A DNA stretch of 64,000 nucleotides from Escherichia coli (GTDB lineage Bacteria > Pseudomonadota > Gammaproteobacteria > Enterobacterales > Enterobacteriaceae). Positions 1 to 23,814 of the stretch are shown in pieces (the stretch's first letter is position 1; every line of letters starts with the position of its first letter). The stretch lies in the NCBI RefSeq assembly GCF_051903065.1, contig NZ_CP178438.1; one strand, 5' to 3'. The position numbers and the translations under genes were made by a program. A model generated the notes under the pieces. That model did no database searches. It was not told the origin of the DNA and saw only the letters and a program-made list of their open reading frames with translations.

Positions 1-104
1 AAAAGGCGAAATACGGCGAATTAAATTTAAGCGGGTTCTTTTATCAGATTATCGTTGCTATTCTCAATTCATCGAAAACAGCCACAAAAACCAGGGGAAT
101 GTGA

Positions 105-710
105 ATGAGTATAAAAAATCTACCTGCCGACTATTTATTGGCTGCACAACAGGGTGATATCGATAAAGTAAAAACCTGCCTTGCGCTGGGTGTCGATATT
201 AATACCTGCGATCGTCAGGGGAAAACGGCAATTACGCTGGCAAGTTTATATCAGCAATATGCTTGCGTTCAGGCATTAATTGATGCCGGAGCGGATATTA
301 ATAAGCAAGATCATACCTGTTTAAATCCTTTTTTAATCAGTTGCCTGAACGGTGATTTAACGCTACTACGAATTATTTTACCGGCTAAACCCGATCTTAA
401 TTGTGTAACCCGTTTCGGCGGTGTCGGCCTGACGCCTGCCTGTGAAAAAGGTCACTTAAGTATTGTGAAAGAGCTTTTGGCGCATACGGATATTAACGTT
501 AACCAGACCAACCATGTAGGCTGGACGCCGCTACTGGAAGCGATTGTGCTTAATGATGGTGGTATTAAACAGCAGGCGATTGTGCAGTTATTGCTGGAAC
601 ACGGTGCCAGCCCGCATCTGACCGATAAATATGGCAAAACGCCACTGGAACTGGCGCGGGAACGGGGCTTTGAAGAGATTGCGCAGTTACTGATTGCCGC
701 AGGTGCATAA
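105..710 (+). CDS. yahD: ankyrin-repeat protein (201 aa)
   Basis: ORF with repeated ankyrin-like units (GKTAITLASL..ALIDAGADIN, GWTPLLEAIV..LLEHGASPHL); position upstream of yahEFG as in E. coli. Confidence 0.8.
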   Translation: MSIKNLPADYLLAAQQGDIDKVKTCLALGVDINTCDRQGKTAITLASLYQQYACVQALIDAGADINKQDHTCLNPFLISCLNGDLTLLRIILPAKPDLNCVTRFGGVGLTPACEKGHLSIVKELLAHTDINVNQTNHVGWTPLLEAIVLNDGGIKQQAIVQLLLEHGASPHLTDKYGKTPLELARERGFEEIAQLLIAAGA

Positions 711-749
711 ACCGGGAGGCTTGCTATCAACACACCAGAAAAACGGTGT

Positions 750-1613
750 GTGTGGGCGCTAACTGCGGATGCGGATTTTCTGGCGCAGCGGGGGCAAGGA
801 CAGGTTGAACAGGTCTTTGCCAGAGCGGTAAATATCGCACTCCCGGCTCGCCAGCAGTTGCTGACGCTGCTTTGTGAAGAGTACGACAATGCGCCAAACA
901 GTTGTCGGTTGGCACTCACTCACTTTGATGGTCTGTTCCGGCATGGTGATAAGGTTCAGTTTGACGATCAAGGCATTACGGTTGGTCAACATCTTCATAT
1001 AGAGATGAGTCGTTGTCGGCGTTGGCTGTCCCCAACCTTGCAAATGACCGCTGTGAATTTTCACCTTATCGCCTGGCAACAGTGGCACGACATTATTCAT
1101 CAGCACTTGGGGGAAAATGAAACCCTGTTTAATTATCGCGGCGATAATCCGTTTTATCAGGCGTTAAATAAAGAATTACATATTAAACGACGGGCAGTTA
1201 TTCAGACAGTAAACGATAAGCAAAATATCGCCTCAGCGGTCACCAGTATGATTGGGTTAGGGATTGGCCTTACGCCATCAGCCGACGATTATTTAACAGG
1301 TCTGGCGCTTATTTTATTTATTCCCGGGCATCCGGCGGAAAAATACAAAGAGGAATTTTATCTCGGTCTGCAACGCGGCAGAAATAATACCACATTATTA
1401 AGTGCTATAACGCTGGAAGCCGCATTACAACAACGTTGCCGGGAAAATATTCATCGTTTTATTCACAACATTATTTATGACATCCCTGGGAACGCAACTC
1501 AGGCAATAGAAAAAATTAAACATATTGGCTCCAGTTCCGGCTGCGACATGCTGTATGGCATGGCCGATGGTTGTGCGCTGAGCCAAACCTACGGAGGGAA
1601 TTATGTCAGTTAA
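750..1613 (+). CDS. yahE: uncharacterised protein (DUF2877-type), 287 aa; exact start uncertain
   Basis: 287-aa ORF; stop overlaps start of next gene (1603..1613), suggesting translational coupling; synteny. Confidence 0.7.
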   Translation: MWALTADADFLAQRGQGQVEQVFARAVNIALPARQQLLTLLCEEYDNAPNSCRLALTHFDGLFRHGDKVQFDDQGITVGQHLHIEMSRCRRWLSPTLQMTAVNFHLIAWQQWHDIIHQHLGENETLFNYRGDNPFYQALNKELHIKRRAVIQTVNDKQNIASAVTSMIGLGIGLTPSADDYLTGLALILFIPGHPAEKYKEEFYLGLQRGRNNTTLLSAITLEAALQQRCRENIHRFIHNIIYDIPGNATQAIEKIKHIGSSSGCDMLYGMADGCALSQTYGGNYVS

Positions 1614-3150
1614 AATAGTCATTAAACCGAATACCTATTTTGATTCTGTCTCGCTGATGTCTATCTCCACGCGTGCAAATAAACTCGACGGCGTCGAGCA
1701 GGCATTTGTGGCGATGGCGACCGAAATGAATAAAGGCGTGCTGAAGAATTTAGGACTGCTGACGCCGGAGCTGGAGCAGGCGAAAAACGGCGACCTGATG
1801 ATTGTCATCAATGGTAAATCGGGTGCGGACAATGAGCAGTTGCTGGCGGAGATTGAAGAACTGTTCAACACCAAAGCGCAAAGCGGCTCGCACGAGGCGC
1901 GTTACGCCACTATTGCCAGCGCCAAAAAGCATATCCCGGAAAGTAACCTGGCGGTGATTTCGGTCAACGGTCTGTTTGCCGCTCGCGAAGCGCGTCAGGC
2001 GCTGCAAAACGATCTCAACGTGATGCTGTTTTCCGATAACGTCTCAGTTGAAGATGAACTGGCGCTCAAGCAACTGGCCCACGAAAAAGGGCTGCTGATG
2101 ATGGGGCCAGACTGCGGCACGGCGATTATCAACGGTGCGGCGCTCTGCTTTGGTAACGCCGTGCGTCGCGGCAACATCGGTATTGTTGGCGCATCCGGCA
2201 CCGGCAGCCAGGAGCTGAGCGTCCGCATTCATGAATTTGGTGGCGGCGTTTCACAACTGATTGGCACCGGCGGGCGCGACCTGAGCGAGAAAATCGGCGG
2301 CCTGATGATGCTCGACGCCATCGGGATGCTGGAAAACGATCCGCAAACTGAAATTATAGCGCTGATTTCAAAACCTCCCGCGCCTGCGGTGGCCCGTAAA
2401 GTGCTGGAACGCGCCCGCGCCTGCCGCAAGCCGGTGGTGGTCTGCTTCCTCGGTCGTGGCGAAACGCCAGTGGATGAGCAGGGGCTACAGTTTGCCCGCG
2501 GCACCAAAGAAGCGGCGCTGAAAGCGGTGATGCTCTCCGGCGTGAAACAGGAAAATCTCGACCTGCATACCCTGAACCAGCCGTTGATTGCGGATGTGCG
2601 TGCGCGTCTGCAACCGCAGCAGAAATACATTCGTGGCCTGTTCTGCGGCGGCACGTTGTGCGACGAAACCATGTTCGCGGTGATGGAAAAACATGGCGAT
2701 GTCTACAGCAACATTCAGCCCGATCCGGAATTCCGCCTGAAAGATATCAACCGCAGCATTAAACACACCTTCCTCGACTTTGGCGATGACGACTTCACCA
2801 ACGGCAAGCCGCACCCGATGATTGACCCCACCAACCGTATCAGCCGCTTGATCGAAGAAGCGCGCGATCCAGAAGTGGCGGTGATCGTGATGGATTTTGT
2901 GCTCGGATTTGGATCGCATGAAGATCCGGTCGGCTCCACCATCGAGGCGATCAAAGAAGCGAAAGCGATCGCCGCTGCCGAAGGACGCGAGTTGATCATT
3001 CTCGCCTATGTGCTGGGTACCGATCTTGATACGCCATCGTTAGAACAACAAAGCCAGATGCTGCTTGATGCCGGAGTGATTCTGGCGAGCAGCAGCACCA
3101 ATACCGGATTGCTGGCGCGTGAATTTATCTGCAAAGGGGAGGAAGCCTGA
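1603..3150 (+). CDS. yahF: FdrA-like / succinyl-CoA-synthetase-alpha-like CoA-binding protein, 515 aa
   Basis: 515-aa ORF with Gly-rich CoA/NAD-binding-like segments (GIVGASGTGSQE); overlaps yahE end and abuts yahG start. Confidence 0.8.
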   Translation: MSVKIVIKPNTYFDSVSLMSISTRANKLDGVEQAFVAMATEMNKGVLKNLGLLTPELEQAKNGDLMIVINGKSGADNEQLLAEIEELFNTKAQSGSHEARYATIASAKKHIPESNLAVISVNGLFAAREARQALQNDLNVMLFSDNVSVEDELALKQLAHEKGLLMMGPDCGTAIINGAALCFGNAVRRGNIGIVGASGTGSQELSVRIHEFGGGVSQLIGTGGRDLSEKIGGLMMLDAIGMLENDPQTEIIALISKPPAPAVARKVLERARACRKPVVVCFLGRGETPVDEQGLQFARGTKEAALKAVMLSGVKQENLDLHTLNQPLIADVRARLQPQQKYIRGLFCGGTLCDETMFAVMEKHGDVYSNIQPDPEFRLKDINRSIKHTFLDFGDDDFTNGKPHPMIDPTNRISRLIEEARDPEVAVIVMDFVLGFGSHEDPVGSTIEAIKEAKAIAAAEGRELIILAYVLGTDLDTPSLEQQSQMLLDAGVILASSSTNTGLLAREFICKGEEA

Positions 3151-4568
3151 TGAGCCAGTCACTGTTTAGCCAACCATTGAACGTTATTAACGTCGGCATC
3201 GCCATGTTTAGCGATGACCTGAAAAAGCAGCATGTAGAAGTGACTCAACTCGACTGGACGCCGCCGGGGCAGGGCAATATGCAGGTGGTGCAGGCGCTGG
3301 ATAACATTGCCGATTCGCCGCTGGCAGACAAAATCGCCGCCGCTAACCAGCAGGCGCTGGAGCGCATTATCCAGTCGCATCCGGTGCTGATTGGTTTTGA
3401 TCAGGCGATTAACGTGGTGCCGGGCATGACGCCGAAAACCATTCTTCACGCCGGGCCGCCGATCACCTGGGAAAAAATGTGCGGCGCGATGAAAGGCGCG
3501 GTCACCGGAGCGCTGGTGTTCGAAGGACTGGCGAAAGATCTCGACGAGGCGGCTGAACTGGCGGCTTCCGGGGAGATCACCTTCTCGCCGTGTCACGAGC
3601 ACGACTGCGTGGGATCGATGGCGGGTGTTACCTCGGCCTCGATGTTTATGCACATCGTAAAAAACAAAACCTACGGCAACATCGCTTATACCAACATGAG
3701 CGAGCAGATGGCGAAGATTTTGCGTATGGGCGCTAACGACCAGAGCGTGATTGACCGCCTGAACTGGATGCGTGATGTGCAGGGACCAATACTGCGCGAC
3801 GCGATGAAAATTATCGGCGAAATCGATCTGCGCTTAATGCTGGCGCAGGCGCTGCATATGGGCGATGAGTGCCATAACCGCAATAACGCCGGGACGACGC
3901 TGCTGATTCAGGCGCTGACGCCGGGGATTATCCAGGCGGGCTATTCCGTCGCGCAACAGCGCGAAGTGTTTGAGTTTGTCGCCAGCAGCGACTACTTCTC
4001 CGGCCCGACGTGGATGGCGATGTGTAAAGCGGCGATGGATGCGGCGCACGGCATCGAATACAGCACCGTGGTCACCACCATGGCGCGTAACGGCGTCGAG
4101 TTCGGCCTGCGGGTCAGCGGATTACCGGGGCAATGGTTTACCGGTCCGGCGCAGCAGGTCATCGGCCCGATGTTTGCCGGTTATAAGCCGGAAGATTCGG
4201 GGCTGGATATCGGCGATAGCGCCATCACAGAAACCTACGGTATTGGCGGGTTTGCTATGGCGACCGCACCCGCTATCGTCGCGCTGGTGGGCGGCACGGT
4301 GGAAGAGGCTATCGATTTCTCCCGTCAGATGCGCGAAATCACCCTTGGCGAAAACCCCAACGTCACCATTCCGCTGCTCGGTTTTATGGGCGTGCCATCG
4401 GCAATCGACATCACCCGCGTGGGTAGCAGCGGCATTCTGCCAGTGATCAACACCGCCATCGCCCATAAAGATGCGGGCGTCGGCATGATTGGCGCGGGCA
4501 TTGTGCATCCACCTTTTGCCTGCTTCGAGAAAGCCATTCTTGGCTGGTGCGAACGTTACGGCGTCTGA
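3150..4568 (+). CDS. yahG: uncharacterised protein (DUF1116-type), 472 aa
   Basis: 472-aa ORF, start codon overlaps yahF stop (3150); synteny. Confidence 0.8.
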   Translation: MSQSLFSQPLNVINVGIAMFSDDLKKQHVEVTQLDWTPPGQGNMQVVQALDNIADSPLADKIAAANQQALERIIQSHPVLIGFDQAINVVPGMTPKTILHAGPPITWEKMCGAMKGAVTGALVFEGLAKDLDEAAELAASGEITFSPCHEHDCVGSMAGVTSASMFMHIVKNKTYGNIAYTNMSEQMAKILRMGANDQSVIDRLNWMRDVQGPILRDAMKIIGEIDLRLMLAQALHMGDECHNRNNAGTTLLIQALTPGIIQAGYSVAQQREVFEFVASSDYFSGPTWMAMCKAAMDAAHGIEYSTVVTTMARNGVEFGLRVSGLPGQWFTGPAQQVIGPMFAGYKPEDSGLDIGDSAITETYGIGGFAMATAPAIVALVGGTVEEAIDFSRQMREITLGENPNVTIPLLGFMGVPSAIDITRVGSSGILPVINTAIAHKDAGVGMIGAGIVHPPFACFEKAILGWCERYGV

Positions 4569-4581
4569 CCTACATGTTCAT

Positions 4582-5035
4582 GCCGGATGCGGCGTGAACG
4601 CCTTATCCGGCCTACGAATGGCGCAAGAATCTGTAGGCCTGATAAGCGTAGCGCATCAGGCATTTGTCACCATTGCCGGATGCGGCGTGAACGCCTTATC
4701 CGGCCCACGAATGGCACGAGAATCTGTAGGCCTGATAAGCGTAGCGCATCAGGCATTTGTCACCATTGCCGGATGCGGCGTGAACGCCTTATCCGGCCTA
4801 CGAATGGCGCAAGAATTGTAGGCCTGATAAGCGTAGCGCATCAGGCATTTGTCACCATTGCCGGATGCGGCGTGAACGCCTTATCCGGCCCACGAATGGC
4901 ACGAGAATTTGTAGGCCTGATAAGCGTAGCGCATCAGGCATTTGTCACCATTGCCGGATGCGGCGTGAACGCCTTATCCGGCTTACGAGTGGCACGAGAA
5001 TTTGTAGGCCTGATAAGCGTAGCGCATCAGGCAAT
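4582..5035. repeat. REP/BIME tandem array (about 5 units, roughly 94-bp period)
   Basis: Repeated units GCCGGATGCGGCGTGAACGCCTTATCCGGCCTAC ... GTAGGCCTGATAAGCGTAGCGCATCAGGCA read directly; palindromic REP consensus; ORF-track hits inside are artefacts. Confidence 0.9.
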
Positions 5036-5082
5036 TTGGCGTTGGTCACAACCCCATCACCCTCTGTAGCGGACATAACAAC

Positions 5083-6033
5083 ATGAAAGAGCTTGTGGTC
5101 GTTGCCATTGGTGGCAACAGCATTATCAAAGATAACGCCAGCCAGTCGATTGAGCATCAGGCGGAGGCGGTGAAAGCCGTCGCCGATACGGTGCTGGAAA
5201 TGCTGGCTTCCGATTACGACATTGTGCTGACCCACGGTAACGGGCCGCAGGTCGGGCTGGATTTACGCCGTGCGGAGATTGCCCACGAGCGCGAAGGGCT
5301 GCCCTTAACGCCGCTGGCGAACTGTGTGGCGGATACGCAAGGCGGCATTGGCTATCTGATCCAACAGGCGCTGAACAACCGACTGGCGCGTCACGGCGAG
5401 AAAAAAGCCGTCACCGTGGTGACTCAGGTGGAAGTGGATAAAAACGATCCGGGATTTGCCCATCCCACCAAGCCCATCGGCGCATTCTTTAGTGACAGCC
5501 AGCGTGACGAATTACAAAAGGCAAACCCTGACTGGTGTTTTGTTGAAGATGCCGGGCGGGGCTATCGCCGCGTAGTCGCTTCGCCGGAACCGAAACGTAT
5601 TGTCGAAGCACCGGCCATTAAGGCGCTGATCCAACAAGGCTTTGTCGTAATTGGCGCGGGCGGCGGTGGAATTCCTGTGGTGCGTACTGACGCGGGAGAT
5701 TACCAAAGCGTGGACGCGGTTATCGACAAAGATCTCTCTACCGCGCTGCTGGCCCGTGAAATTCACGCCGACATTCTGGTGATCACCACCGGGGTGGAAA
5801 AAGTGTGTATTCATTTTGGCAAACCCGAGCAGCAGGCGCTGGATCGCGTAGATATTGCCACCATGACTCGCTATATGCAGGAAGGGCATTTCCCGCCCGG
5901 CAGCATGTTGCCAAAAATCATCGCCAGCCTGACGTTCCTGGAACAGGGCGGCAAAGAAGTGATTATCACCACGCCGGAATGCCTGCCTGCGGCGCTGCGC
6001 GGTGAAACGGGCACCCATATTATTAAAACGTAA
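5083..6033 (+). CDS. yahI: carbamate kinase-like protein, 316 aa
   Basis: 316-aa ORF with amino-acid-kinase-family features (VVAIGGNSI N-terminus, C-terminal GG-rich segment); synteny. Confidence 0.85.
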   Translation: MKELVVVAIGGNSIIKDNASQSIEHQAEAVKAVADTVLEMLASDYDIVLTHGNGPQVGLDLRRAEIAHEREGLPLTPLANCVADTQGGIGYLIQQALNNRLARHGEKKAVTVVTQVEVDKNDPGFAHPTKPIGAFFSDSQRDELQKANPDWCFVEDAGRGYRRVVASPEPKRIVEAPAIKALIQQGFVVIGAGGGGIPVVRTDAGDYQSVDAVIDKDLSTALLAREIHADILVITTGVEKVCIHFGKPEQQALDRVDIATMTRYMQEGHFPPGSMLPKIIASLTFLEQGGKEVIITTPECLPAALRGETGTHIIKT

Positions 6034-6042
6034 GGACGTAAG

Positions 6043-7425
6043 ATGAAAGAAAATAATAGCCGCCGTGAATTTCTGAGCCAGAGCGGTAAGATGGTCACCG
6101 CCGCCGCGCTGTTTGGTACCTCTGTGCCGCTCGCCCATGCGGCAGTCTCTGGCACAACCCACTGCGACGCGAATAACGCCATGAAAATCACTGACCCGCA
6201 CTACTATCTCGACAACGTGCTGCTGGAAACTGGATTTGACTACGAAAATGGCGTGGCGGTTCAGACCCGCACGGCGCGCCAGACCGTGGAGATTCAGAAC
6301 GGCAAAATTGTCGCGCTGCGCGAGAATAAGCAGCACCCGGATGCCACGCTTCCGCACTATGATGCTGGCGGTAAGCTGATGTTGCCCACCACCCGCGACA
6401 TGCATATTCATCTCGATAAAACCTTTTACGGCGGGCCGTGGCGCTCGCTTAATCGCCCGGCAGGCACCACCATCCAGGATATGATTAAGCTCGAGCAAAA
6501 AATGCTGCCGGAGCTGCAACCCTACACCCAGGAACGGGCGGAAAAACTGATCGATCTATTGCAGTCGAAAGGCACCACCATTGCCCGCAGTCACTGCAAT
6601 ATCGAACCGGTTTCCGGCCTGAAAAATCTGCAAAATTTGCAGGCGGTGCTGGCGCGACGTCAGGCGGGCTTTGAGTGTGAAATCGTCGCCTTCCCGCAGC
6701 ACGGTTTGCTGCTGTCGAAATCGGAACCCTTAATGCGTGAAGCAATGCAGGCGGGTGCGCATTACGTCGGCGGGCTGGACCCGACCAGTGTCGATGGCGC
6801 GATGGAAAAATCCCTCGACACCATGTTCCAGATTGCGCTGGACTACGACAAAGGCGTCGATATTCACCTGCACGAAACCACTCCGTCGGGCGTGGCAGCC
6901 ATCAATTATATGGTTGAAACGGTAGAGAAAACGCCTCAACTGAAAGGTAAGCTGACCATCAGCCACGCCTTTGCGCTGGCTACGCTCAACGAGCAACAGG
7001 TAGATGAACTGGCGCATCGCATGGCGGCGCAGCAAATTTCTATCGCCTCGACGGTGCCGATTGGCACGCTGCATATGCCGCTCAAACAGTTGCACGACAA
7101 AGGCGTAAAAGTGATGACCGGCACCGACAGCGTTATCGACCACTGGTCGCCTTATGGTCTGGGCGACATGCTGGAAAAAGCCAATCTGTACGCGCAGCTC
7201 TATATTCGTCCTAACGAACAGAACCTCTCCCGTTCGCTGTTTCTAGCCACTGGCGATGTATTGCCGCTGAATGAAAAAGGCGAGCGTGTATGGCCAAAAG
7301 CGCAGGATGACGCCAGCTTTGTGCTGGTGGACGCCTCCTGTTCCGCCGAAGCGGTGGCGCGTATCTCGCCGAGAACCGCAACGTTCCATAAAGGGCAACT
7401 GGTGTGGGGGAGTGTGGCAGGTTGA
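6043..7425 (+). CDS. yahJ: amidohydrolase/deaminase-family protein with twin-arginine (Tat) signal peptide, 460 aa
   Basis: N-terminus MKENNSRREFLSQSGKMVTAAALFGTSVPLAHAA contains an S-R-R-x-F-L Tat motif followed by a hydrophobic stretch and AxA cleavage site; metal-dependent hydrolase-like HxH segment (DMHIHLD). Confidence 0.85.
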   Translation: MKENNSRREFLSQSGKMVTAAALFGTSVPLAHAAVSGTTHCDANNAMKITDPHYYLDNVLLETGFDYENGVAVQTRTARQTVEIQNGKIVALRENKQHPDATLPHYDAGGKLMLPTTRDMHIHLDKTFYGGPWRSLNRPAGTTIQDMIKLEQKMLPELQPYTQERAEKLIDLLQSKGTTIARSHCNIEPVSGLKNLQNLQAVLARRQAGFECEIVAFPQHGLLLSKSEPLMREAMQAGAHYVGGLDPTSVDGAMEKSLDTMFQIALDYDKGVDIHLHETTPSGVAAINYMVETVEKTPQLKGKLTISHAFALATLNEQQVDELAHRMAAQQISIASTVPIGTLHMPLKQLHDKGVKVMTGTDSVIDHWSPYGLGDMLEKANLYAQLYIRPNEQNLSRSLFLATGDVLPLNEKGERVWPKAQDDASFVLVDASCSAEAVARISPRTATFHKGQLVWGSVAG

Positions 7426-7801
7426 TGCGCATTTGAAACGCCTGCAACGGTGAATAGTAAGAGATTTAAGCCCCAGGGAGTGGGGCAATCTGAATATGAG
7501 TGTGTCGGCAGAAATGGACATTATCTTTGAGGAATATGCCCTTATTGACGTTGTGTAGATAACTATTTGTCTACGTGAAAAGATCATCAGTTTTGCCGAT
7601 TTTAGTCTTTTACGGATAGCAAATATCACACTTATAGGCGCTCGCCTTATGGGGAACGTTGCTGCTTTGTTTCATTCAGGCTCGCGGCATGTTGGGGCTG
7701 GATCGGGTGGTTTAAATATTGGCTATATTCAATGGACGCGTTTTGCCGCGATGACATATCAGGCGTCGCCAAATACACATAGCTAATCAGGAGTAAACAC
7801 A

Positions 7802-8851
7802 ATGAAGATCAAAGCTGTTGGTGCATATTCCGCTAAACAACCACTTGAACCGATGGATATCACCCGGCGTGAACCGGGACCGAATGATGTCAAAATCGAA
7901 ATCGCTTACTGTGGCGTCTGCCATTCCGATCTCCACCAGGTCCGTTCCGAGTGGGCGGGGACGGTTTACCCCTGCGTACCGGGTCATGAAATTGTGGGGC
8001 GTGTGGTAGCCGTTGGTGATCAGGTAGAAAAACATGCGCCGGGCGATCTGGTCGGTGTCGGCTGCATTGTCGACAGTTGTAAACATTGCGAAGAGTGTGA
8101 AGACGGGCTGGAAAACTACTGTGATCACATGACCGGCACCTATAACTCGCCGACGCCGGACGAACCGGGCCATACGCTGGGCGGCTACTCACAACAGATC
8201 GTCGTTCATGAGCGATATGTTCTGCGTATTCGTCACCCGCAAGAGCAGCTGGCAGCGGTGGCTCCTTTGTTGTGTGCAGGGATCACCACGTACTCGCCGC
8301 TACGTCACTGGCAGGCCGGGCCGGGTAAAAAAGTGGGCGTGGTCGGCATCGGCGGTCTGGGACATATGGGGATTAAGCTGGCCCACGCGATGGGGGCACA
8401 TGTGGTGGCATTTACCACTTCTGAGGCAAAACGCGAAGCGGCAAAAGCCCTGGGGGCCGATGAAGTTGTTAACTCACGCAATGCCGATGAGATGGCGGCT
8501 CATCTGAAGAGTTTCGATTTCATTTTGAATACAGTAGCTGCGCCACATAATCTCGACGATTTTACCACCTTGCTGAAGCGTGATGGCACCATGACGCTGG
8601 TTGGTGCGCCTGCGACACCGCATAAATCGCCGGAAGTTTTCAACCTGATCATGAAACGCCGTGCGATAGCCGGTTCTATGATTGGCGGCATTCCAGAAAC
8701 TCAGGAGATGCTCGATTTTTGCGCCGAACATGGCATCGTGGCTGATATAGAGATGATTCGGGCCGATCAAATTAATGAAGCCTATGAGCGAATGCTGCGT
8801 GGTGATGTGAAATATCGTTTTGTTATCGATAATCGCACACTAACAGACTGA
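7802..8851 (+). CDS. yahK: Zn-dependent NADPH aldehyde reductase (medium-chain dehydrogenase), 349 aa
   Basis: GVCHSDLH and GHEIVGRV zinc-ADH motifs, GxGxxG Rossmann segment (GVVGIGGLGHMG). Confidence 0.9.
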   Translation: MKIKAVGAYSAKQPLEPMDITRREPGPNDVKIEIAYCGVCHSDLHQVRSEWAGTVYPCVPGHEIVGRVVAVGDQVEKHAPGDLVGVGCIVDSCKHCEECEDGLENYCDHMTGTYNSPTPDEPGHTLGGYSQQIVVHERYVLRIRHPQEQLAAVAPLLCAGITTYSPLRHWQAGPGKKVGVVGIGGLGHMGIKLAHAMGAHVVAFTTSEAKREAAKALGADEVVNSRNADEMAAHLKSFDFILNTVAAPHNLDDFTTLLKRDGTMTLVGAPATPHKSPEVFNLIMKRRAIAGSMIGGIPETQEMLDFCAEHGIVADIEMIRADQINEAYERMLRGDVKYRFVIDNRTLTD

Positions 8852-8890
8852 AAAAATTAATAAATACCCTGTGATTTAACATATTAACTT

Positions 8891-8924
8891 CGCTCTCCAC
8901 TTAACTTTTTAGTTAAGGAGAGCG
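8891..8924 (+). terminator. stem-loop downstream of yahK (possible terminator)
   Basis: CGCTCTCC-ac-TTAACT-tttt-AGTTAA-GGAGAGCG inverted repeat 40 bp after the yahK stop; no clean T-tract, so intrinsic-terminator status is uncertain. Confidence 0.4.
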
Positions 8925-9093
8925 AAATAATATCAAAGTAGCAGTAAAACCTATAACGTAAATTCAAATTGTTAAATTAACTCCCTCCAGTACACAATAC
9001 TTCTCACGTTAGTTATGAGCGATTTCTGATAGTGCCTGGTTTAATTAGAGCTTTATTATCTGCGACGTTTATTTTTATTTAAGAGAGATCGCG

Positions 9094-9909
9094 ATGATAT
9101 CATTAAAAGCTCCGCGCAATAATTTGATGCCATATACGCAACAAAGCATACTTAATACGGTTAAAAACAATCAGTTACCAGAGGATATCAAAAGCTCCCT
9201 GGTTTCCTGTGTCGATATATTCAAGGTTTTGATTAAACAATATTATGATTATCCTTATGATTGTCGTGATGATTTAGTCGATGACGACAAACTCATTCAT
9301 CTCATGGCTGCCGTACGAGACTGTGAGTGGTCAGACGATAACGCACTCACCATAAATGTGCAGTTTAATGATTTCCCTGGATTTTATGACTGGATGGATT
9401 ACCCTGATCACCCGGTTAAGTTTGTTTTTCGCATACTTGAAAATCAAAAAGGGACAGTTTGGGTATATGACCAGGATGATGCGTTTCTTGATATTAAAGC
9501 AAATGTGCAGGCTGGACGCTTTACCGGGCTTAAGAAATTAGTGCAGTTTATCAATTCAGTGCGAACAGATTGCAAATGTATTCTTCTTGAACACCATATG
9601 CCTTTGCTGAGACTTTTCCCTAAAGGGAAAGAATGTATGCATGTGGAAAAATGGCTTCGCGAAATGTCGTCTATTCCAGAGACAGACGCGCCCATTAAGC
9701 AGGCGCTTGCGCATGGATTATTATTACACTTAAAAAATATCTACCCTGTTTTTCCTGAATCACTGGTGATGTTATTGCTCTCTGTTCTGGACGTAAAAAC
9801 ATACAGAGATGATGCGCGATTAAATGAATGGATATCTAATAGAGTGCAGGAATTAGGTGACAGATATTATCCTGTAAATAAGCACGTTAAAATCCGCTAC
9901 ACTCTTTAG
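9094..9909 (+). CDS. yahL: uncharacterised protein, 271 aa, AT-rich gene
   Basis: 271-aa ORF in a visibly AT-rich segment flanked by AT-rich intergenic DNA; no recognisable catalytic motif. Confidence 0.65.
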   Translation: MISLKAPRNNLMPYTQQSILNTVKNNQLPEDIKSSLVSCVDIFKVLIKQYYDYPYDCRDDLVDDDKLIHLMAAVRDCEWSDDNALTINVQFNDFPGFYDWMDYPDHPVKFVFRILENQKGTVWVYDQDDAFLDIKANVQAGRFTGLKKLVQFINSVRTDCKCILLEHHMPLLRLFPKGKECMHVEKWLREMSSIPETDAPIKQALAHGLLLHLKNIYPVFPESLVMLLLSVLDVKTYRDDARLNEWISNRVQELGDRYYPVNKHVKIRYTL

Positions 9910-10321
9910 TTCAGAAAGGGTTCCACCTGAAAGTTGTTATTCCACCAGAGAGTGAATGGCAATGCAGGTAATCATTTCATCTGTATATCTGTATGCCAAC
10001 TGGCATTCCATCTCTTTTTTCGCCGATATTTTGTTGTGATCGGCGACACTTCGCTTAAAAAAGCACCAGCAGTGGTTTCGCAGCTATGCGGTGTATAAAA
10101 AATGATCTCATGCAGATGTTTTGTGAATGTGTGGGTTGACATTCATATGAAAAAAATCATAATTCCATCATGTTTGTGTGGGGTCTTTTCTGTATCTTAC
10201 GCATCGCACTCAAGCCTGACAGAAAATATGCTGTAAGGCTCATATCAAAAACCGCCATTAGCTCATCAGGAAGAGCAGACGACAACCAGGATTGTTGTAT
10301 GGTACGGGGTTCGAGGCCTCG

Positions 10322-10567
10322 ATGGCGGTCCAACTTTTCAAAACTCTTCTGAATCAGATCCCCTTATTATCATCCCTGCAAAGTGGAACATTGCCATTGT
10401 TTGGCTATTCAGGACGGGTCAGACCAATGAAAAAAGCCCACACAGGGGAGAGTGGGCTGAAATGGGAAGCTAAAGACTCAAGTAAACTTATCGGAAATAA
10501 GGACCACGCATTACGGGGGCTATCATCGCCGATGGTCGGGATTCGGCAAATCAGGTTGATTACGTAG
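10322..10567 (+). CDS. yahM: small uncharacterised protein, 81 aa (start taken at MAVQLF)
   Basis: ORF 10292..10567; an internal ATG gives an 81-aa product matching the remembered size of yahM; weak support. Confidence 0.4.
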   Translation: MAVQLFKTLLNQIPLLSSLQSGTLPLFGYSGRVRPMKKAHTGESGLKWEAKDSSKLIGNKDHALRGLSSPMVGIRQIRLIT

Positions 10568-10583
10568 AGAGTAAATTATCTGC

Positions 10584-11255
10584 TCACCGCTGCGTCACCC
10601 CTTCGTAAATCAGGCGTAGCGCGAATACACCAATAATTGCACCAATAACCCGACTGGCAACGCGTTGCATACGCCCATAAGCACGACGCACAGCGGGCAA
10701 AGAAAACGCCTGACTAAGAAAAACTCGCCAGATAATTGATGCGAGCACAATCCCCGCCCAGGCCATTAAACGTGCCCATGTTGGTGTTTCGGCATTTAAT
10801 GTTACTGAGAAAATACTGATAAAAAATAAAACGGTTTGCGGGTTAGAGAGATCGGTAATTAATCCACGGCGAAAAAAGACATACCAGGGGGCGCTAATCG
10901 GTTGTTGTAGTGTGCTCATTTGCGGTGTTGACTGGCGGCGCATGCTGCACCACGCAAACCATAAGAGATAAGCGCCGCCGACGATTCTGATAAGCGAGAA
11001 AATCTCCTCACACTGCGTAATTAGCGTTGCAAGACCAAACAAACCCAATCCGGAATAAAATGCATCGCCCAGCGCCACGCCCAGCCCGGTCAGCACCCCT
11101 GCGCGTCGACCGGAAGCCAGGCTGGTTTGTACTACCACAAAGAGATTGGCTCCCGGATTAAAAAAAGTAATCACGAACAGTCCTACGGTCAGGTAAACGG
11201 CATGCAAAGGATCCATAGTGATTTCATCCATAAATAAGTGAACTAACTGCATCAT
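10584..11255 (-). CDS. yahN: LysE/RhtB-family amino-acid exporter, 223 aa
   Basis: Hydrophobic multi-helix protein of LysE-family length; synteny. Confidence 0.8.
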   Translation of the reverse strand: MMQLVHLFMDEITMDPLHAVYLTVGLFVITFFNPGANLFVVVQTSLASGRRAGVLTGLGVALGDAFYSGLGLFGLATLITQCEEIFSLIRIVGGAYLLWFAWCSMRRQSTPQMSTLQQPISAPWYVFFRRGLITDLSNPQTVLFFISIFSVTLNAETPTWARLMAWAGIVLASIIWRVFLSQAFSLPAVRRAYGRMQRVASRVIGAIIGVFALRLIYEGVTQR

Positions 11256-11706: not shown

Positions 11707-12763
11707 GGCTTTGTTGAATAAATCGAACTTTTGCTGAGTTGAAGGATCAGATCACGTATCTTCCCGACAACGCAGACCGTTCCGTGGCAAAGCAAAAGTT
11801 CAAAATCACCAACTGGCCCACCTACAATAAAGCCCTCATCAACCGTGGCTCCATAACTTTCTGGCTGGATGATGAAGCTATTCAGGCCTGGTATGAGTCA
11901 GCAACACCTTCTTCACGAGGCAGACCTCAGCGCTATTCTGACCTTGCCATCACGACTGTGCTGGTCATTAAACGCGTATTCAGGCTGACCCTGCGCGCTG
12001 CGCAGGGCTTTATTGATTCCATTTTTTCTCTGATGAACGTTCCGCTACGCTGCCCGGATTACAGCTGTGTCAGCAGGCGGGCAAAGTCGGTTAATGTCAG
12101 TTTCAAAACGCCCACCCGGGGTGAAATCGCACACCTGGTAATTGATTCCACCGGGCTGAAGGTCTTCGGTGAAGGCGAGTGGAAAGTCAAAAAGCATGGC
12201 CAGGAACGCCGCCGTATCTGGCGTAAGCTGCATCTCGCCGTTGACAGTAAAACACATGAAATCATCTGCGCTGACCTGTCGCTGAACAACGTTACGGACT
12301 CAGAGGCCTTCCCCGGGTTAATCCGGCAAACCCACCGGAAAATCAGGTCAGCCGCCGCCGATGGCGCTTACGATACCCGGCTATGTCACGATGAACTGCG
12401 GCGTAAGAAAATCAGCGCGCTTATCCCTCCCCGAAAAGGTGCGGGTTACTGGCCCGGTGAATATGCAGACCGTAACCGTGCAGTGGCTAATCAGCGAATG
12501 ACCGGGAGTAATGCGCGGTGGAAATGGACAACAGATTACAACCGTCGCTCGATAGCGGAAACGGCGATGTACCGGGTAAAACAGCTGTTCGGGGGTTCAC
12601 TGACACTGCGTGACTACGATGGTCAGGTTGCAGAGGCTATGGCCCTGGTACGAGCGCTGAACAAAATGACGAAAGCAGGTATGCCTGAAAGCGTGCGTAT
12701 TGCCTGAAAACACAACCCGCTACGGGGGAGACTTACCCGAAATCTGATTTATTCAACAAAGCC
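11707..12763 (+). mobile_element. IS903-type insertion sequence (IS5 family), 1057 bp, intact
   Basis: 18-bp terminal inverted repeats GGCTTTGTTGAATAAATC (11707..11724) and its reverse complement (12746..12763); flanked by perfect 9-bp direct repeats TCCCCGATG (11698..11706 and 12764..12772); length 1057 bp matches IS903. Confidence 0.9.
11784..12707 (+). CDS. IS903 transposase (about 307 aa if GTG start at 11784; ORF open from 11739)
   Basis: Single long ORF filling the element; left-end DNA matches the remembered Tn903/IS903 end sequence; 307-aa size expected for IS903 transposase. Confidence 0.85.
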   Translation: MAKQKFKITNWPTYNKALINRGSITFWLDDEAIQAWYESATPSSRGRPQRYSDLAITTVLVIKRVFRLTLRAAQGFIDSIFSLMNVPLRCPDYSCVSRRAKSVNVSFKTPTRGEIAHLVIDSTGLKVFGEGEWKVKKHGQERRRIWRKLHLAVDSKTHEIICADLSLNNVTDSEAFPGLIRQTHRKIRSAAADGAYDTRLCHDELRRKKISALIPPRKGAGYWPGEYADRNRAVANQRMTGSNARWKWTTDYNRRSIAETAMYRVKQLFGGSLTLRDYDGQVAEAMALVRALNKMTKAGMPESVRIA

Positions 12764-12840: not shown

Positions 12841-14427
12841 TCAGCTTTTCAGCCGCCGCCAGAACGTCGTCCGGCTGATGCCTAAATAATTCGCCGCTGC
12901 TGTTTTATCGCCATTAAATTTCTCCAGTGCCTGTTGTGGTGTCAGTAAGCGTGGAGCGGGAGTTTTCGCCGACTCGCGCGCCAGTTCCGGCAGTAGCAGC
13001 TGCAAAAATTGCGGCGTTAAATCCGGCGTCGGTTCCACACTTAAAAATAGCGCCAGTCGCTCCATCATATTGCGCAGTTCACGAATATTGCCCGGCCAGT
13101 CGTAGTGCATCAGCACGGTTTCGCTTGCCTGTAATCCCTGGCGTAATGCGGCAGAAAACGGGGCGGAGAGCGCCGCCAGAGACACTTTCAAAAAGCTTTC
13201 CGCCAGCGGAAGAATATCCGCCACCCGCTCGCGGAGTGGTGGCAATTGCAGACGCAAAATACTCAGCCGATAAAACAGATCACGGCGAAAACGTCCTTGC
13301 TGCATATCTTCTTCCAGATTGCAGTGAGTGGCGCTAATGACCCGTACATCTACCGGAACAGGCTGATGCCCGCCGACGCGGGTGACCTCTTTTTCTTCCA
13401 GCACCCGTAACAGGCGAGTCTGCAAAGGTAGCGGCATTTCGCCAATCTCATCCAAAAACAGCGTGCCACCGTGGGCGATTTCAAACAGCCCGGCACGACC
13501 TCCGCGTCGCGAGCCGGTAAACGCCCCTTCCTCATAGCCAAACAGCTCCGCTTCCAGCAGCGATTCGGCAATCGCCCCGCAGTTGACGGCAACAAACGGA
13601 TGCGACTTTTTGCCCTGTCGCGCATCGTGGCGGGCAAAATATTCCCGATGAATTGCCTGGGCCGCCAGCTCTTTGCCCGTCCCCGTTTCCCCCTCAATCA
13701 ACACCGCTGCACTGGAGCGGGCATACAGCAAAATAGTCTGCCGTACTTGTTCCATCTGTGGTGATTGACCGAGCATATCGCCCAGCACGTAACGAGTTCT
13801 CAGGGCGTTGCGGGTGGCATCGTGAGTGTTATGGCGTAACGACATGCGCGTCATATCCAGCGCATCGCTGAACGCCTGGCGCACGGTGGCGGCGGAATAG
13901 ATAAAAATTCCGGTCATTCCGGCTTCTTCTGCCAGATCGGTAATCAGCCCCGCACCGACCACCGCTTCGGTGCCGTTAGCTTTTAGCTCGTTAATCTGCC
14001 CGCGTGCGTCTTCCTCGGTAATGTAGCTACGTTGATCGAGGCGCAAATTAAAGGTTTTTTGAAACGCCACCAGTGCCGGAATAGTTTCCTGATAAGTGAC
14101 AACGCCGATAGAAGAGGTGAGCTTTCCGGCTTTTGCCAGTGCCTGTAACACATCGTAGCCGCTCGGTTTAATCAAAATAACTGGCACTGACAGGCGGCTT
14201 TTCAGGTACGCGCCGTTAGAGCCAGCAGCGATGATGGCGTCACAGCGTTCGTTTGCCAGTTTCTTGCGGATGTAGGTCACTGCTTTTTCAAAGCCAAGCT
14301 GAATAGGGGTAATGTTCGCCAGGTGATCAAACTCGAGGCTGATATCGCGAAACAGCTCGAACAGGCGCGTTACAGATACCGTCCAGATAACCGGTTTGTC
14401 GTCATTCAGCCGTGGTGGATGTGCCAT
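12841..14427 (-). CDS. prpR: sigma-54-dependent propionate regulon activator, about 528 aa (start taken at MAHPPRL)
   Basis: AAA+ sigma54-activator motifs ([21 protein letters not shown]-like [12 protein letters not shown]) and C-terminal HTH; divergent from prpB. Confidence 0.85.
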
Positions 14428-22541: not shown

Positions 22542-23814
22542 CGCTTTACAAACAATTATTAACGCCCGGTTACCCGGCAAAGAGGGGCTGTGGCAGATTC
22601 ATCTGCAGGACGGAAAAATCAGCGCCATTGATGCGCAATCCGGCGTGATGCCCATAACTGAAAACAGCCTGGATGCCGAACAAGGTTTAGTTATACCGCC
22701 GTTTGTGGAGCCACATATTCACCTGGACACCACGCAAACCGCCGGACAACCGAACTGGAATCAGTCCGGCACGCTGTTTGAAGGCATTGAACGCTGGGCC
22801 GAGCGCAAAGCGTTATTAACCCATGACGATGTGAAACAACGCGCATGGCAAACGCTGAAATGGCAGATTGCCAACGGCATTCAGCATGTGCGTACCCATG
22901 TCGATGTTTCGGATGCAACGCTAACTGCGCTGAAAGCAATGCTGGAAGTGAAGCAGGAAGTCGCGCCGTGGATTGATCTGCAAATCGTCGCCTTCCCGCA
23001 GGAAGGGATTTTGTCGTATCCCAACGGTGAAGCGTTGCTGGAAGAGGCGTTACGCTTAGGGGCAGATGTAGTGGGGGCGATTCCGCATTTTGAATTTACC
23101 CGTGAATACGGCGTGGAGTCGCTGCATAAAACCTTCGCCCTGGCGCAAAAATACGACCGTCTCATCGACGTTCACTGTGATGAGATCGATGACGAGCAGT
23201 CGCGCTTTGTCGAAACCGTTGCTGCCCTGGCGCACCGTGAAGGCATGGGCGCGCGAGTCACCGCCAGCCACACCACGGCAATGCACTCCTATAACGGGGC
23301 GTATACCTCACGCCTGTTCCGCTTGCTGAAAATGTCCGGTATTAACTTTGTCGCCAACCCGCTGGTCAATATTCATCTGCAAGGACGTTTCGATACGTAT
23401 CCAAAACGTCGCGGCATCACGCGCGTTAAAGAGATGCTGGAGTCCGGCATTAACGTCTGCTTTGGTCACGATGATGTCTTCGATCCGTGGTATCCGCTGG
23501 GAACGGCGAATATGCTGCAAGTGCTGCATATGGGGCTGCATGTTTGCCAGCTGATGGGCTATGGGCAGATTAACGATGGCCTGAATTTAATCACCCACCA
23601 CAGCGCCAGGACGTTGAATTTGCAGGATTACGGCATTGCCGCCGGAAACAGCGCCAACCTGATTATCCTGCCGGCTGAAAATGGGTTTGATGCGCTGCGC
23701 CGTCAGGTTCCGGTACGTTATTCGGTACGTGGCGGCAAGGTGATTGCCAGCACACAACCGGCACAAACCACCGTATATCTGGAGCAGCCAGAAGCCATCG
23801 ATTACAAACGGTGA
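22531..23814 (+). CDS. codA: cytosine deaminase, about 427 aa (GTG start at VSNNALQ; ORF open from 22516)
   Basis: Amidohydrolase fold with HxH metal motif (EPHIHLD); overlaps codB 3-prime end. Confidence 0.9.

Follow-up and report, generated by a model that had tools for sequence, protein, structure and literature searches.

The closest described relatives of the system considered here are encoded in the allantoin region of Escherichia coli. AllF-AllG-AllH, purified by Kim and Kim in 2024, is an oxamate carbamoyltransferase catalyzing the reaction oxalurate + Pi <-> oxamate + carbamoyl phosphate, and full oxamate production in vivo required allF, allG and allH together (PMC11326118). A 2022 study identified AllK (YbcF) as a catabolic carbamate kinase (PMC9843812). 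Neither paper, nor a 2025 follow-up on regulation, mentions the yah genes of the same organism, which occupy positions 105-7425 of the 64,000-nucleotide stretch of E. coli DNA analyzed here (contig NZ_CP178438.1 of assembly GCF_051903065.1, the whole stretch being called the window below). It is rather probable that yahDEFG and yahIJ, together with the divergent yahB and yahC just beyond the left edge of the window, represent in E. coli a catabolic module of wide distribution, with a four-step pathway leading from a small N-heterocycle by way of an acylurea to ATP.

Two other kinds of system merit comparison. In the arginine and agmatine deiminase pathways the substrate is deaminated or deiminated to a ureido compound, this is phosphorolyzed and ATP is gained via carbamate kinase, with a transporter encoded in the cluster. 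Their transferase has the aspartate/ornithine transcarbamylase fold, which is not found in the yah set, the yah deaminase is of the amidohydrolase superfamily and predicted to be periplasmic, and while the leaving group there is an amine, an amide from an acylurea would be expected for yah. The E. coli ygeW-ygeX-ygeY-hyuA-yqeA cluster also combines a carbamate kinase homologue, the third paralogue in this organism, with a putative catabolic carbamoyl-transfer enzyme acting on a purine-derived compound, but YgeW has the classical transcarbamylase fold and is accompanied by a hydantoinase, and there is no homology to YahE, YahF or YahG. The literature found on yahD to yahJ, on DUF1116 and DUF2877, and on yahI in connection with carbamate kinase consists of gene lists, with no functional work, and one metagenomic paper conflates yahF with allF while reporting that allFGHK-like genes adjoin triuret and biuret genes in Nitrospira.

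The yah locus and its paralogy with AllFGH and AllK

The locus comprises the following features.

yahD, 105-710, plus strand: 201-amino-acid ankyrin-repeat protein, the first gene of the module (open reading frame with ankyrin matches)
yahE, 750-1613, plus strand: GTG start; 287-amino-acid AllH-like (DUF2877) accessory subunit
yahF, 1603-3150, plus strand: 515-amino-acid AllF/FdrA-like protein with a CoA-binding Rossmann domain and a CoA-ligase domain
yahG, 3150-4568, plus strand: 472-amino-acid AllG-like (DUF1116) subunit
Array of repetitive extragenic palindromic (REP) sequences, or bacterial interspersed mosaic element (BIME), 4581-5038, no strand: five 93-bp units, filling the gap between yahG and yahI
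yahI, 5083-6033, plus strand: 316-amino-acid carbamate kinase family protein
yahJ, 6043-7425, plus strand: 460-amino-acid AtzC/CodA-type metal-dependent deaminase, with a twin-arginine translocation (Tat) signal peptide predicted at 6043-6141

The six open reading frames lie exactly where a preliminary description of this DNA had placed them. The two overlaps noted there are also as described: that of yahE and yahF (1603..1613) is 11 nt, with a GGAGGG Shine-Dalgarno sequence 5′ of the yahF AUG, and that of yahF and yahG, at 3150, is the single nucleotide of a TGATG junction. The REP array of roughly 450 bp said to follow yahG measures 458 bp, and yahI does directly precede yahJ, though with a gap of 9 nt and not the 10 bp given.

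The same description had recognized, by paralogy, a resemblance to the fdrA-ylbE-ylbF-ybcF set, and BLASTP of the yah proteins against AllH, AllF, AllG and AllK of the K-12 allantoin region bears this out. YahE is 25% identical to AllH (YlbF; E 3e-10) and YahG 45% identical to AllG (YlbE; E 2e-119), these being the two proteins for which a lack of similarity to the allantoin-cluster DUF proteins would have told against the idea; the corresponding values are 39% for YahF with AllF (FdrA; E 4e-103) and 38% for YahI with AllK (YbcF; E 7e-57). Pfam assigns HMA_AllF_N, CoA_binding and Ligase_CoA domains to YahF, AllG to YahG and AllH to YahE. The paralogy is already present in database names, the RefSeq product name for YahE being ‘oxamate carbamoyltransferase subunit AllH family protein’. 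Where the preliminary description fell behind was in treating the allantoin-region set as no more than proposed to encode oxamate carbamoyltransferase plus carbamate kinase, for the papers cited above show the activities. Its suggestion that a ureido compound is converted to carbamoyl phosphate and then ATP fares well: the paralogy, the family models and the linkage of F/G genes to carbamate kinase genes in several phyla make conversion of an acylureido compound, by analogy with the allantoin-region enzymes, the best-supported reading of the yah cluster.

What the two systems share is the same three families and a carbamate kinase encoded in one operon with overlapping frames, and, as may be expected by analogy, the chemistry of N-acylurea phosphorolysis to carbamoyl phosphate and then ATP. 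They differ in gene order, F-G-H in all and H-F-G in yah, and in subunit length, AllF having 555 and AllG 419 amino acids as against 515 for YahF and 472 for YahG, with a C-terminal tail of about 45 residues that is on AllF in one system and its counterpart on YahG in the other. The yah set adds an ankyrin subunit, a dedicated permease that E. coli has lost, a deaminase predicted to be Tat-exported, and a LysR regulator. Linkage to allantoin genes is a feature of all and is not seen for yah, and the AllH-like subunit of yah is dispensable in some lineages.

A module present in several phyla

Gene neighborhoods were compared in Serratia, Klebsiella aerogenes, Citrobacter freundii, Brevibacillus, Janthinobacterium, Azospirillum, Aeromonas, Enterococcus faecalis, Trichococcus, Neobacillus, Jeotgalibaca and Oceanobacillus, and the fetched loci were surveyed by BLASTP against reference proteins; 77 enterobacterial loci were complete in having yahD, yahF, yahG and yahI. 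What recurs is a set of genes for an ankyrin protein, AllH-like, AllF-like and AllG-like proteins, a permease and a carbamate kinase, alongside a divergently oriented gene for a LysR- or PucR-type regulator. The arrangement ankyrin-(E)-F-G-permease-carbamate kinase is found in Bacilli as well as in Alpha-, Beta- and Gammaproteobacteria. YahG keeps 75-88% identity over a range of taxa from Aeromonas to Brevibacillus, and its relatives are encoded in at least 475 species genomes. No allD, allC or allE was present within 10 kb in any of the approximately 90 yah-type loci examined. As judged from these comparisons, the yah type is a separate and strongly conserved cross-phylum lineage, sister to AllFGH and AllK, and not a local duplicate of them.

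These data bear on the alternative that the yah set is a redundant back-up isozyme of AllFGH-AllK, serving oxalurate derived internally from allantoin and having no role of its own, which is improbable. The four proteins are paralogous, as it would require, and a K-12 allFGH deletion strain still formed 16% of the wild-type amount of oxamate with plasmid-borne allGH alone, and 7% with allFG alone (PMC11326118 Table 3). YahF and YahE are the only paralogues able to supply the missing subunit, a point not discussed in that paper, and the residual oxamate could reflect weak cross-complementation by them. The deletion alone, though, gave zero oxamate under anaerobic allantoin conditions (PMC11326118), and so the yah genes do not replace AllFGH in vivo. 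A back-up role also fits poorly with the lack of allantoin-gene linkage, with the cluster having its own permease, regulator, ankyrin subunit and putatively exported deaminase, with the higher identity of YahG across phyla than to AllG in the same cell, and with the retention of both sets together under purifying selection.

Linkage to carbamate kinase is consistent in the enteric bacteria. YahI matches the NCBIfam carbamate kinase subfamily PRK12352 with 650 bits (cut-off 266), and its gene follows that of the permease, or yahG where the permease is absent, in all 77 loci. A carbamate kinase gene has the same position in Aeromonas, Janthinobacterium, Brevibacillus and Oceanobacillus; Neobacillus and Azospirillum have it at another place in the cluster.

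The E. faecalis cluster is of yah type, its YahF-like protein being 53% identical to YahF versus 38% to AllF. In one contig of E. faecalis, taken from public sequencing data, the gene for the YahG-like protein (locus coordinates 9751-11155) is frameshifted near an A-run, giving open reading frames of 77 and 384 amino acids, and the AllH-like gene of that contig is shortened to 230 amino acids; strain decay or assembly error could be responsible. The PDB 3clq construct, too, begins behind the N-terminal segment.

In E. coli itself, the first 9 kb of the window are 100% identical to three chromosomes, and at least 80% of that length is covered in 4854 of 5426 complete genomes. The ratio of nonsynonymous to synonymous substitution rates (dN/dS) of the yah genes is 0.02-0.29 relative to Klebsiella, Kluyvera, Raoultella and Citrobacter orthologues, and so they are not chance reading frames. 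Comparison of E. coli with the other members of what is termed below the permease-less clade (K. aerogenes, Kluyvera, Raoultella and C. amalonaticus), by the Nei-Gojobori (NG86) method and with values that are approximate as dS is near saturation, gave the following ranges.

yahB: 0.02-0.03
yahC: 0.04-0.12
yahD: 0.10-0.13
yahE: 0.23-0.29
yahF: 0.07-0.09
yahG: 0.02-0.04
yahI: 0.05-0.09
yahJ: 0.06-0.09

The cluster in this clade is under purifying selection and is not decaying.

A permease lost from E. coli

Between yahG and yahI, C. freundii, Serratia and most other relatives encode a polytopic membrane protein of 516-517 amino acids. Among the 77 enterobacterial loci its gene is present, and yahC absent, in 59; in 17 the permease gene is absent and yahC lies between yahB and yahD; the remaining one is cut off upstream, and there the permease is lacking and no sequence is available to show yahC. 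Not one of the 77 has both. The permease-less, yahC-bearing genera are Escherichia, Pseudocitrobacter, Kluyvera, Citrobacter (C. amalonaticus), Klebsiella and Raoultella. Since the permease is found at 56-85% identity in Aeromonas, Janthinobacterium, Azospirillum, Neobacillus and Jeotgalibaca, its absence is a derived loss. The REP array occupies the permease site in E. coli, and tblastn over the whole window revealed no permease remnant, indicating a clean loss. The strict complementarity of yahC and the permease suggests that YahC, or a carrier encoded elsewhere, has replaced it. BLASTP of YahC against the 517-amino-acid permease and against a 394-amino-acid permease of Lactobacillales gave no match at E <= 1, and so YahC, if it is the replacement, is unrelated.

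Loss of a carrier raises the alternative that the E. coli genes are a cryptic remnant, with the REP array in place of the permease, and serve no pathway. This too is improbable. Its attraction is that a permease common to 59 of 77 loci is gone without trace in the window, that no phenotype has been reported except for a mild competition defect of a yahJ mutant in mice (index 0.70), and that a simple scan found no sigma-70-like promoter on the coding strand. Decay would not, however, be expected to leave all the genes intact in 4854 of 5426 E. coli genomes, nor dN/dS at 0.02-0.13 (with yahE alone at 0.23-0.29) across the permease-less clade; that clade has uniformly gained yahC, encoding a small membrane protein, beside yahB, and the perfect complementarity, 17 loci versus 59, is suggestive of carrier replacement instead.

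The permease itself has no match in Pfam, NCBIfam or the sequences of the PDB, yet its family is large, with 2180 representative clusters at E <= 1e-3. 

An AlphaFold2 model built on a 49-sequence alignment has a predicted local distance difference test score (pLDDT) of 93.2 and a predicted template modeling score (pTM) of 0.91, with short strands at residues 85-87 and 303-305. Foldseek matched the model to SVCT1, UraA, a NAT transporter, AZG1/AZG2, BicA, prestin/SLC26 and Bor1 (E 2e-7 to 1e-5), at identities of 11-18%. With hhalign, the family profile aligned to E. coli AdeP at 95% probability (E 2.6e-8; 241 columns, including the region of transmembrane segment 10), and a few family members match Xan_ur_permease and MFS_MOT1 weakly, 1 of the 49 reaching E 5e-7. 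By this modeling the permease would be a new and distant branch of the nucleobase/anion permease superfamily with the 7+7 transmembrane UraA fold. The likeness to NCS2/AzgA-like permeases (UraA, AdeP, AZG1/2) and to SulP/SLC26 lies in that predicted fold with its short strands in transmembrane segments 3 and 10; where AzgA has its ES motif, the permease has GH.

Other carriers stand in for it elsewhere. The Brevibacillus cluster encodes an NCS1 permease, which scores 434 bits with the allantoin permease model versus 42 with that for cytosine permease, and those of Lactobacillales and Oceanobacillus encode a membrane protein of about 390 amino acids that belongs to no family. Neobacillus niacini has a 120-amino-acid permease fragment directly 3′ of yahG (locus coordinates 11975-12337) and a full copy further downstream; the fragment looks like the trace of a rearrangement within the cluster.

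YahD, YahE, YahF and YahG

YahD orthologues are 54-80% identical from Brevibacillus to Kluyvera, and their gene is directly 5′ of the E/F/G genes in Enterobacterales, Aeromonas, Janthinobacterium and Brevibacillus. In Azospirillum, Trichococcus, Neobacillus and Jeotgalibaca its place is taken by a longer form with ankyrin and tetratricopeptide repeats, the N-terminal half of which matches YahD, and the clusters of E. faecalis and Oceanobacillus are without an ankyrin gene. YahD is a conserved core member of the module, more constant than the AllH-like protein. The presence of an ankyrin protein had prompted an anti-phage defense reading, which was ruled out: PADLOC defense models gave only generic ankyrin matches for YahD and none for the other seven proteins.

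YahE shares the motifs GLGxGLTPSxDD and IGSSSGxD with AllH (PF11392), and is only 25-65% identical between genera. Its gene is missing from about 20 loci of Enterobacter, Leclercia, Lelliottia, Huaxiibacter and Silvania (L041-L044, L047, L048, L050-L053, L055-L065, L067 and L073 in the survey), where yahF follows yahD after some 100 bp, tblastn for yahE found nothing, and yahD, yahF, yahG, the permease gene, yahI and yahJ are all kept. It is missing from Jeotgalibaca (L095) as well, again with those other genes kept, and Serratia sp. DD3 has just a 25-amino-acid remnant. The dN/dS of yahE, highest in the permease-less genera as listed above, is 0.10 relative to C. freundii, with neighboring genes at 0.02-0.13. 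YahE therefore seems to be fast-evolving and, given its absence from the Enterobacter group, dispensable in some lineages. A search for YahE/AllH relatives in the PDB, run both with one sequence and with a profile of 14 sequences, gave only chance-level matches to ribosomal proteins.

YahF matches the NCBIfam FdrA subfamily with 494 bits (cut-off 433), and its nearest structure is FdrA, PDB 3dmy (E 3e-83). It is without the C-terminal tail of AllF, and YahG residues 5-55 are homologous to AllF residues 513-555 at the C-terminus, and so one segment has crossed the F/G gene boundary between the all and yah lineages. A boundary shifted in this way is expected if F and G are one complex, and argues for a physical complex of the two with the segment at their interface.

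At the position of the GHAGA phosphohistidine loop, as located by alignment with E. coli SucD, YahF has IRGLFCGGTL and AllF has ICGLYTGGTL. A phosphohistidine mechanism inherited from the alpha subunit of succinyl-CoA synthetase was ruled out, the loop being unconserved in both proteins, and no beta or ATP-grasp partner subunit of succinyl-CoA synthetase type was found. The possibility that YahF is an acyl-CoA synthetase, the cluster then activating an organic acid with CoA and carrying out no carbamoyl transfer, is very unlikely; what speaks for it is the CoA_binding and Ligase_CoA domains, weak matches to the succinyl-CoA synthetase alpha subunit (E 5e-19, and PDB matches), and the RefSeq product name ‘acyl-CoA synthetase FdrA’.

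YahJ, a predicted exported deaminase

The N-terminus of YahJ, MKENNSRREFLSQSGKMVTAAALFGTSVPLAHA, is a textbook twin-arginine signal, with the twin-arginine motif, hydrophobic stretch and AxA cleavage site all present (SRREFL...AAALFGTSVPLAHA). The RR motif is found in 77 of 80 loci with a YahJ orthologue; the homologues of Trichococcus, which is Gram-positive, are cytoplasmic and do not have it. YahJ is among the predicted Tat substrates of a strain of extraintestinal pathogenic E. coli, the yahJ mutant of which had a competitive index of 0.70 in mice (PMC7549933). YahJ is thus likely to be a Tat-exported periplasmic enzyme, acting before uptake rather than after the kinase.

The nearest structures are 6nbo (E 4e-44) and AtzC, 2qt3 (E 6e-30), both named N-isopropylammelide isopropylaminohydrolase, and then cytosine deaminases (CodA, about 1e-16). 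YahJ keeps the metal ligands of AtzC, with DMHIHLDK, HLHE, ISHAF and GTDSVIDHW for DAHTHMDK, HIHD, TSHAW and ASDNIRDFW of 2qt3, and so has the HxH, two further His and Asp of a mononuclear metal site. Fold and ligand motifs are shared with AtzC and CodA; these two are without a Tat signal peptide, and YahJ is in an NCBIfam subfamily of its own, PRK06846 (717 bits, cut-off 447), falling well below the cytosine deaminase equivalogs PRK07583 (70 versus 403 bits) and PRK09230 (82.5 versus 483 bits). The codA gene is in the same window at 22597-23520, and its product, which has no signal peptide, is 26% identical to YahJ.

Deaminases vary between clusters. Those of Trichococcus and Oceanobacillus have two or three PRK06846 paralogues, those of Brevibacillus and Neobacillus have instead a 150-amino-acid deaminase of the unrelated cytidine-deaminase fold, and those of Aeromonas, Janthinobacterium and Azospirillum have none. 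The use of two unrelated folds suggests an optional first step in which an amino or imino group is taken off a heterocycle, in enteric bacteria before uptake. Enamine-imine deaminases of the RidA/RutC family also adjoin yah-type clusters in Trichococcus (locus coordinates 12971-14239 and 1533-1910), where one is a triple-RidA fusion of 422 amino acids, and in Brevibacillus (2297-2677), which hints at a reactive enamine or imine product.

Regulation

In the RefSeq record identical to this DNA, where the genes are annotated as yahD to yahK, yahB (LysR) and yahC (DUF1097) lie to the left in divergent orientation. Divergence of yahB and yahD holds for Aeromonas and for all enterobacterial loci in which the sequence extends that far; in Janthinobacterium yahB is downstream. 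A perfect palindrome, TTGTTGAA-CATCA-TTCAACAA, is 124 bp 5′ of the E. coli yahD ATG and ends at window position 1, outside the span covered by the preliminary description. The form TTGTTGAA-N5-TTCAACAA is found 121-135 bp 5′ of the yahD ATG in Escherichia, Citrobacter, Klebsiella, Serratia and Aeromonas, and further 5′, at about 145-200 bp, in Providencia and relatives, so that across Enterobacterales and Aeromonas the arms are conserved and the spacer is free. YahB probably controls the operon through this palindrome, a candidate operator. The simple sigma-70 promoter and terminator scan of positions 1-7900, which yielded no coding-strand site, gave a total count below the shuffled expectation and is uninformative on regulation.

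Proposed pathway and substrate

In the pathway proposed, YahJ would first deaminate an amino- or imino-substituted small N-heterocycle outside the cytoplasm. The oxo product, or an acylurea derived from it, would then be taken up, by the 517-amino-acid permease in most relatives and in E. coli perhaps by YahC or another carrier. In the third step YahF-YahG, with YahD and the accessory YahE, would cleave the N-acyl-urea bond with phosphate, as homology and the analogy with AllFGH acting on oxalurate suggest, the products being carbamoyl phosphate and an amide. Finally YahI, whose assignment to the carbamate kinase family is clear from its model match, would transfer the phosphate to ADP, with formation of ATP, NH3 and CO2.

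The same reactions could be envisaged in the synthetic direction, with carbamoyl phosphate made by YahI serving to carbamoylate an amide and so yield an acylurea metabolite. The AllFGH reaction is freely reversible, and was assayed that way, and carbamate kinases can run backwards; an uptake permease, an apparently exported deaminase and regulators of LysR or PucR type are a catabolic context, however, and no biosynthetic or export genes recur, which leaves synthesis with very little probability.

With respect to the substrate of the catabolic pathway, a carrier was present in the clusters always, and no enzyme making an acylurea internally was encoded in any of the loci examined, and so the compound or its immediate precursor comes from outside. 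A small planar N-heterocycle, nucleobase- or ureide-like, is indicated by the carriers, which are of UraA/AzgA fold or allantoin-permease-like NCS1 type, by the regulators of PucR type found in Bacilli, and by deaminases of nucleobase type. That the acylurea is oxalurate obtained from outside, as oxalurate, parabanate or imino precursors, is a serious candidate that still falls short of an even chance; a different ring-derived acylureide has about the same standing or slightly less, and what remains falls to something else. Older E. faecalis strains are reported to have an inducible oxamate transcarbamylase, and a 1965 study reportedly had that enzyme induced by parabanic acid in a Streptococcus. 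Both this induction and the yah type of the E. faecalis cluster favor the oxalurate/parabanate candidate. A recent review has parabanic and oxaluric acids arising from oxidized guanine and urate. On the other side, many genomes keep both the yah and the all sets, the two lineages are strongly diverged, and the zero oxamate of the allFGH deletion counts against oxalurate unless the operon was uninduced.

That deletion result is also one of several points that weigh against the acylurea-to-ATP pathway as a whole. The cluster is without a ring-opening enzyme, and so a heterocycle must open spontaneously or through the F/G enzyme. YahI, at 345.8 bits, is marginally below the cut-off of 358.25 for the arcC equivalog TIGR00746, and the E. 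faecalis and Trichococcus clusters have no adjacent carbamate kinase gene. With its cognate permease gone, the pathway may run poorly or differently in E. coli. The YahG fold has no structural neighbors and YahF lacks the succinyl-CoA synthetase phosphohistidine, and the chemistry is therefore not derivable from structure.

A bolder form of the proposal is more tentative, and on balance doubtful: that the yah-type module is a pathway not described before, crossing phyla, in which ATP is gained by substrate-level phosphorylation from a nucleobase-like N-heterocycle. It would comprise YahD, YahF and YahG, with or without YahE, the new UraA-fold permease family, carbamate kinase and interchangeable deaminases. 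F/G, with an ankyrin subunit, would cleave acylureas by phosphorolysis, the first step would be periplasmic in enterics, and the candidate substrates would be parabanate, oxalurate and imino precursors from urate or guanine oxidation, or a ring of triazine or pyrimidine-trione type.

The REP array and flanking features

Tandem Repeats Finder gives the array at 4581-5038 a period of 93 bp, 4.9 copies and 95% matches, and the units are typical REP units, which account for a median of 22 partial matches per E. coli genome. RefSeq has ‘hypothetical protein’ coding sequences inside it at 4618-4821 and 4896-5069, and there are further open reading frames of 110, 160 and 73 amino acids; made of REP repeats, these are almost certainly spurious. 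To the right, the annotation of the identical RefSeq record has a 75-bp partial pseudogene between yahJ and yahK (7641-7715) and a frameshifted IS5-family transposase gene between yahO and prpR (11784-12706). The G+C content is 0.34-0.42 over yahL and yahM (8500-10000) versus 0.55-0.60 over yahF to yahJ, which suggests that the yahL/yahM stretch was acquired separately. In other genera, synteny with the yah cluster does not extend to yahK or the genes right of it.

Significance

As far as could be found, nothing in the literature describes the module and its conservation, the permease family and its loss, the complementary distribution of yahC and that permease, the ability of some lineages to do without YahE, the shift of the F/G boundary or the candidate operator. 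The kind of finding is unsurprising, yet it makes the function of eight uncharacterized E. coli genes directly testable. If the proposal is right, yahB, yahC, yahD, yahE, yahF, yahG, yahI and yahJ would have a coherent role, and E. coli's set of three carbamate kinase paralogues would have one member accounted for. The AllFGH class would become one branch of a larger family, present in at least 475 species, whose dominant branch differs from it in accessory subunit and probably also in substrate, and an unclassified permease family of 2180 representative clusters would gain a functional context. Should the substrate prove to be a product of urate or guanine oxidation, the pathway would be relevant to the use of damaged purines as a nitrogen and energy source by bacteria of gut and soil, and could explain the mild in-host fitness defect of the yahJ mutant.

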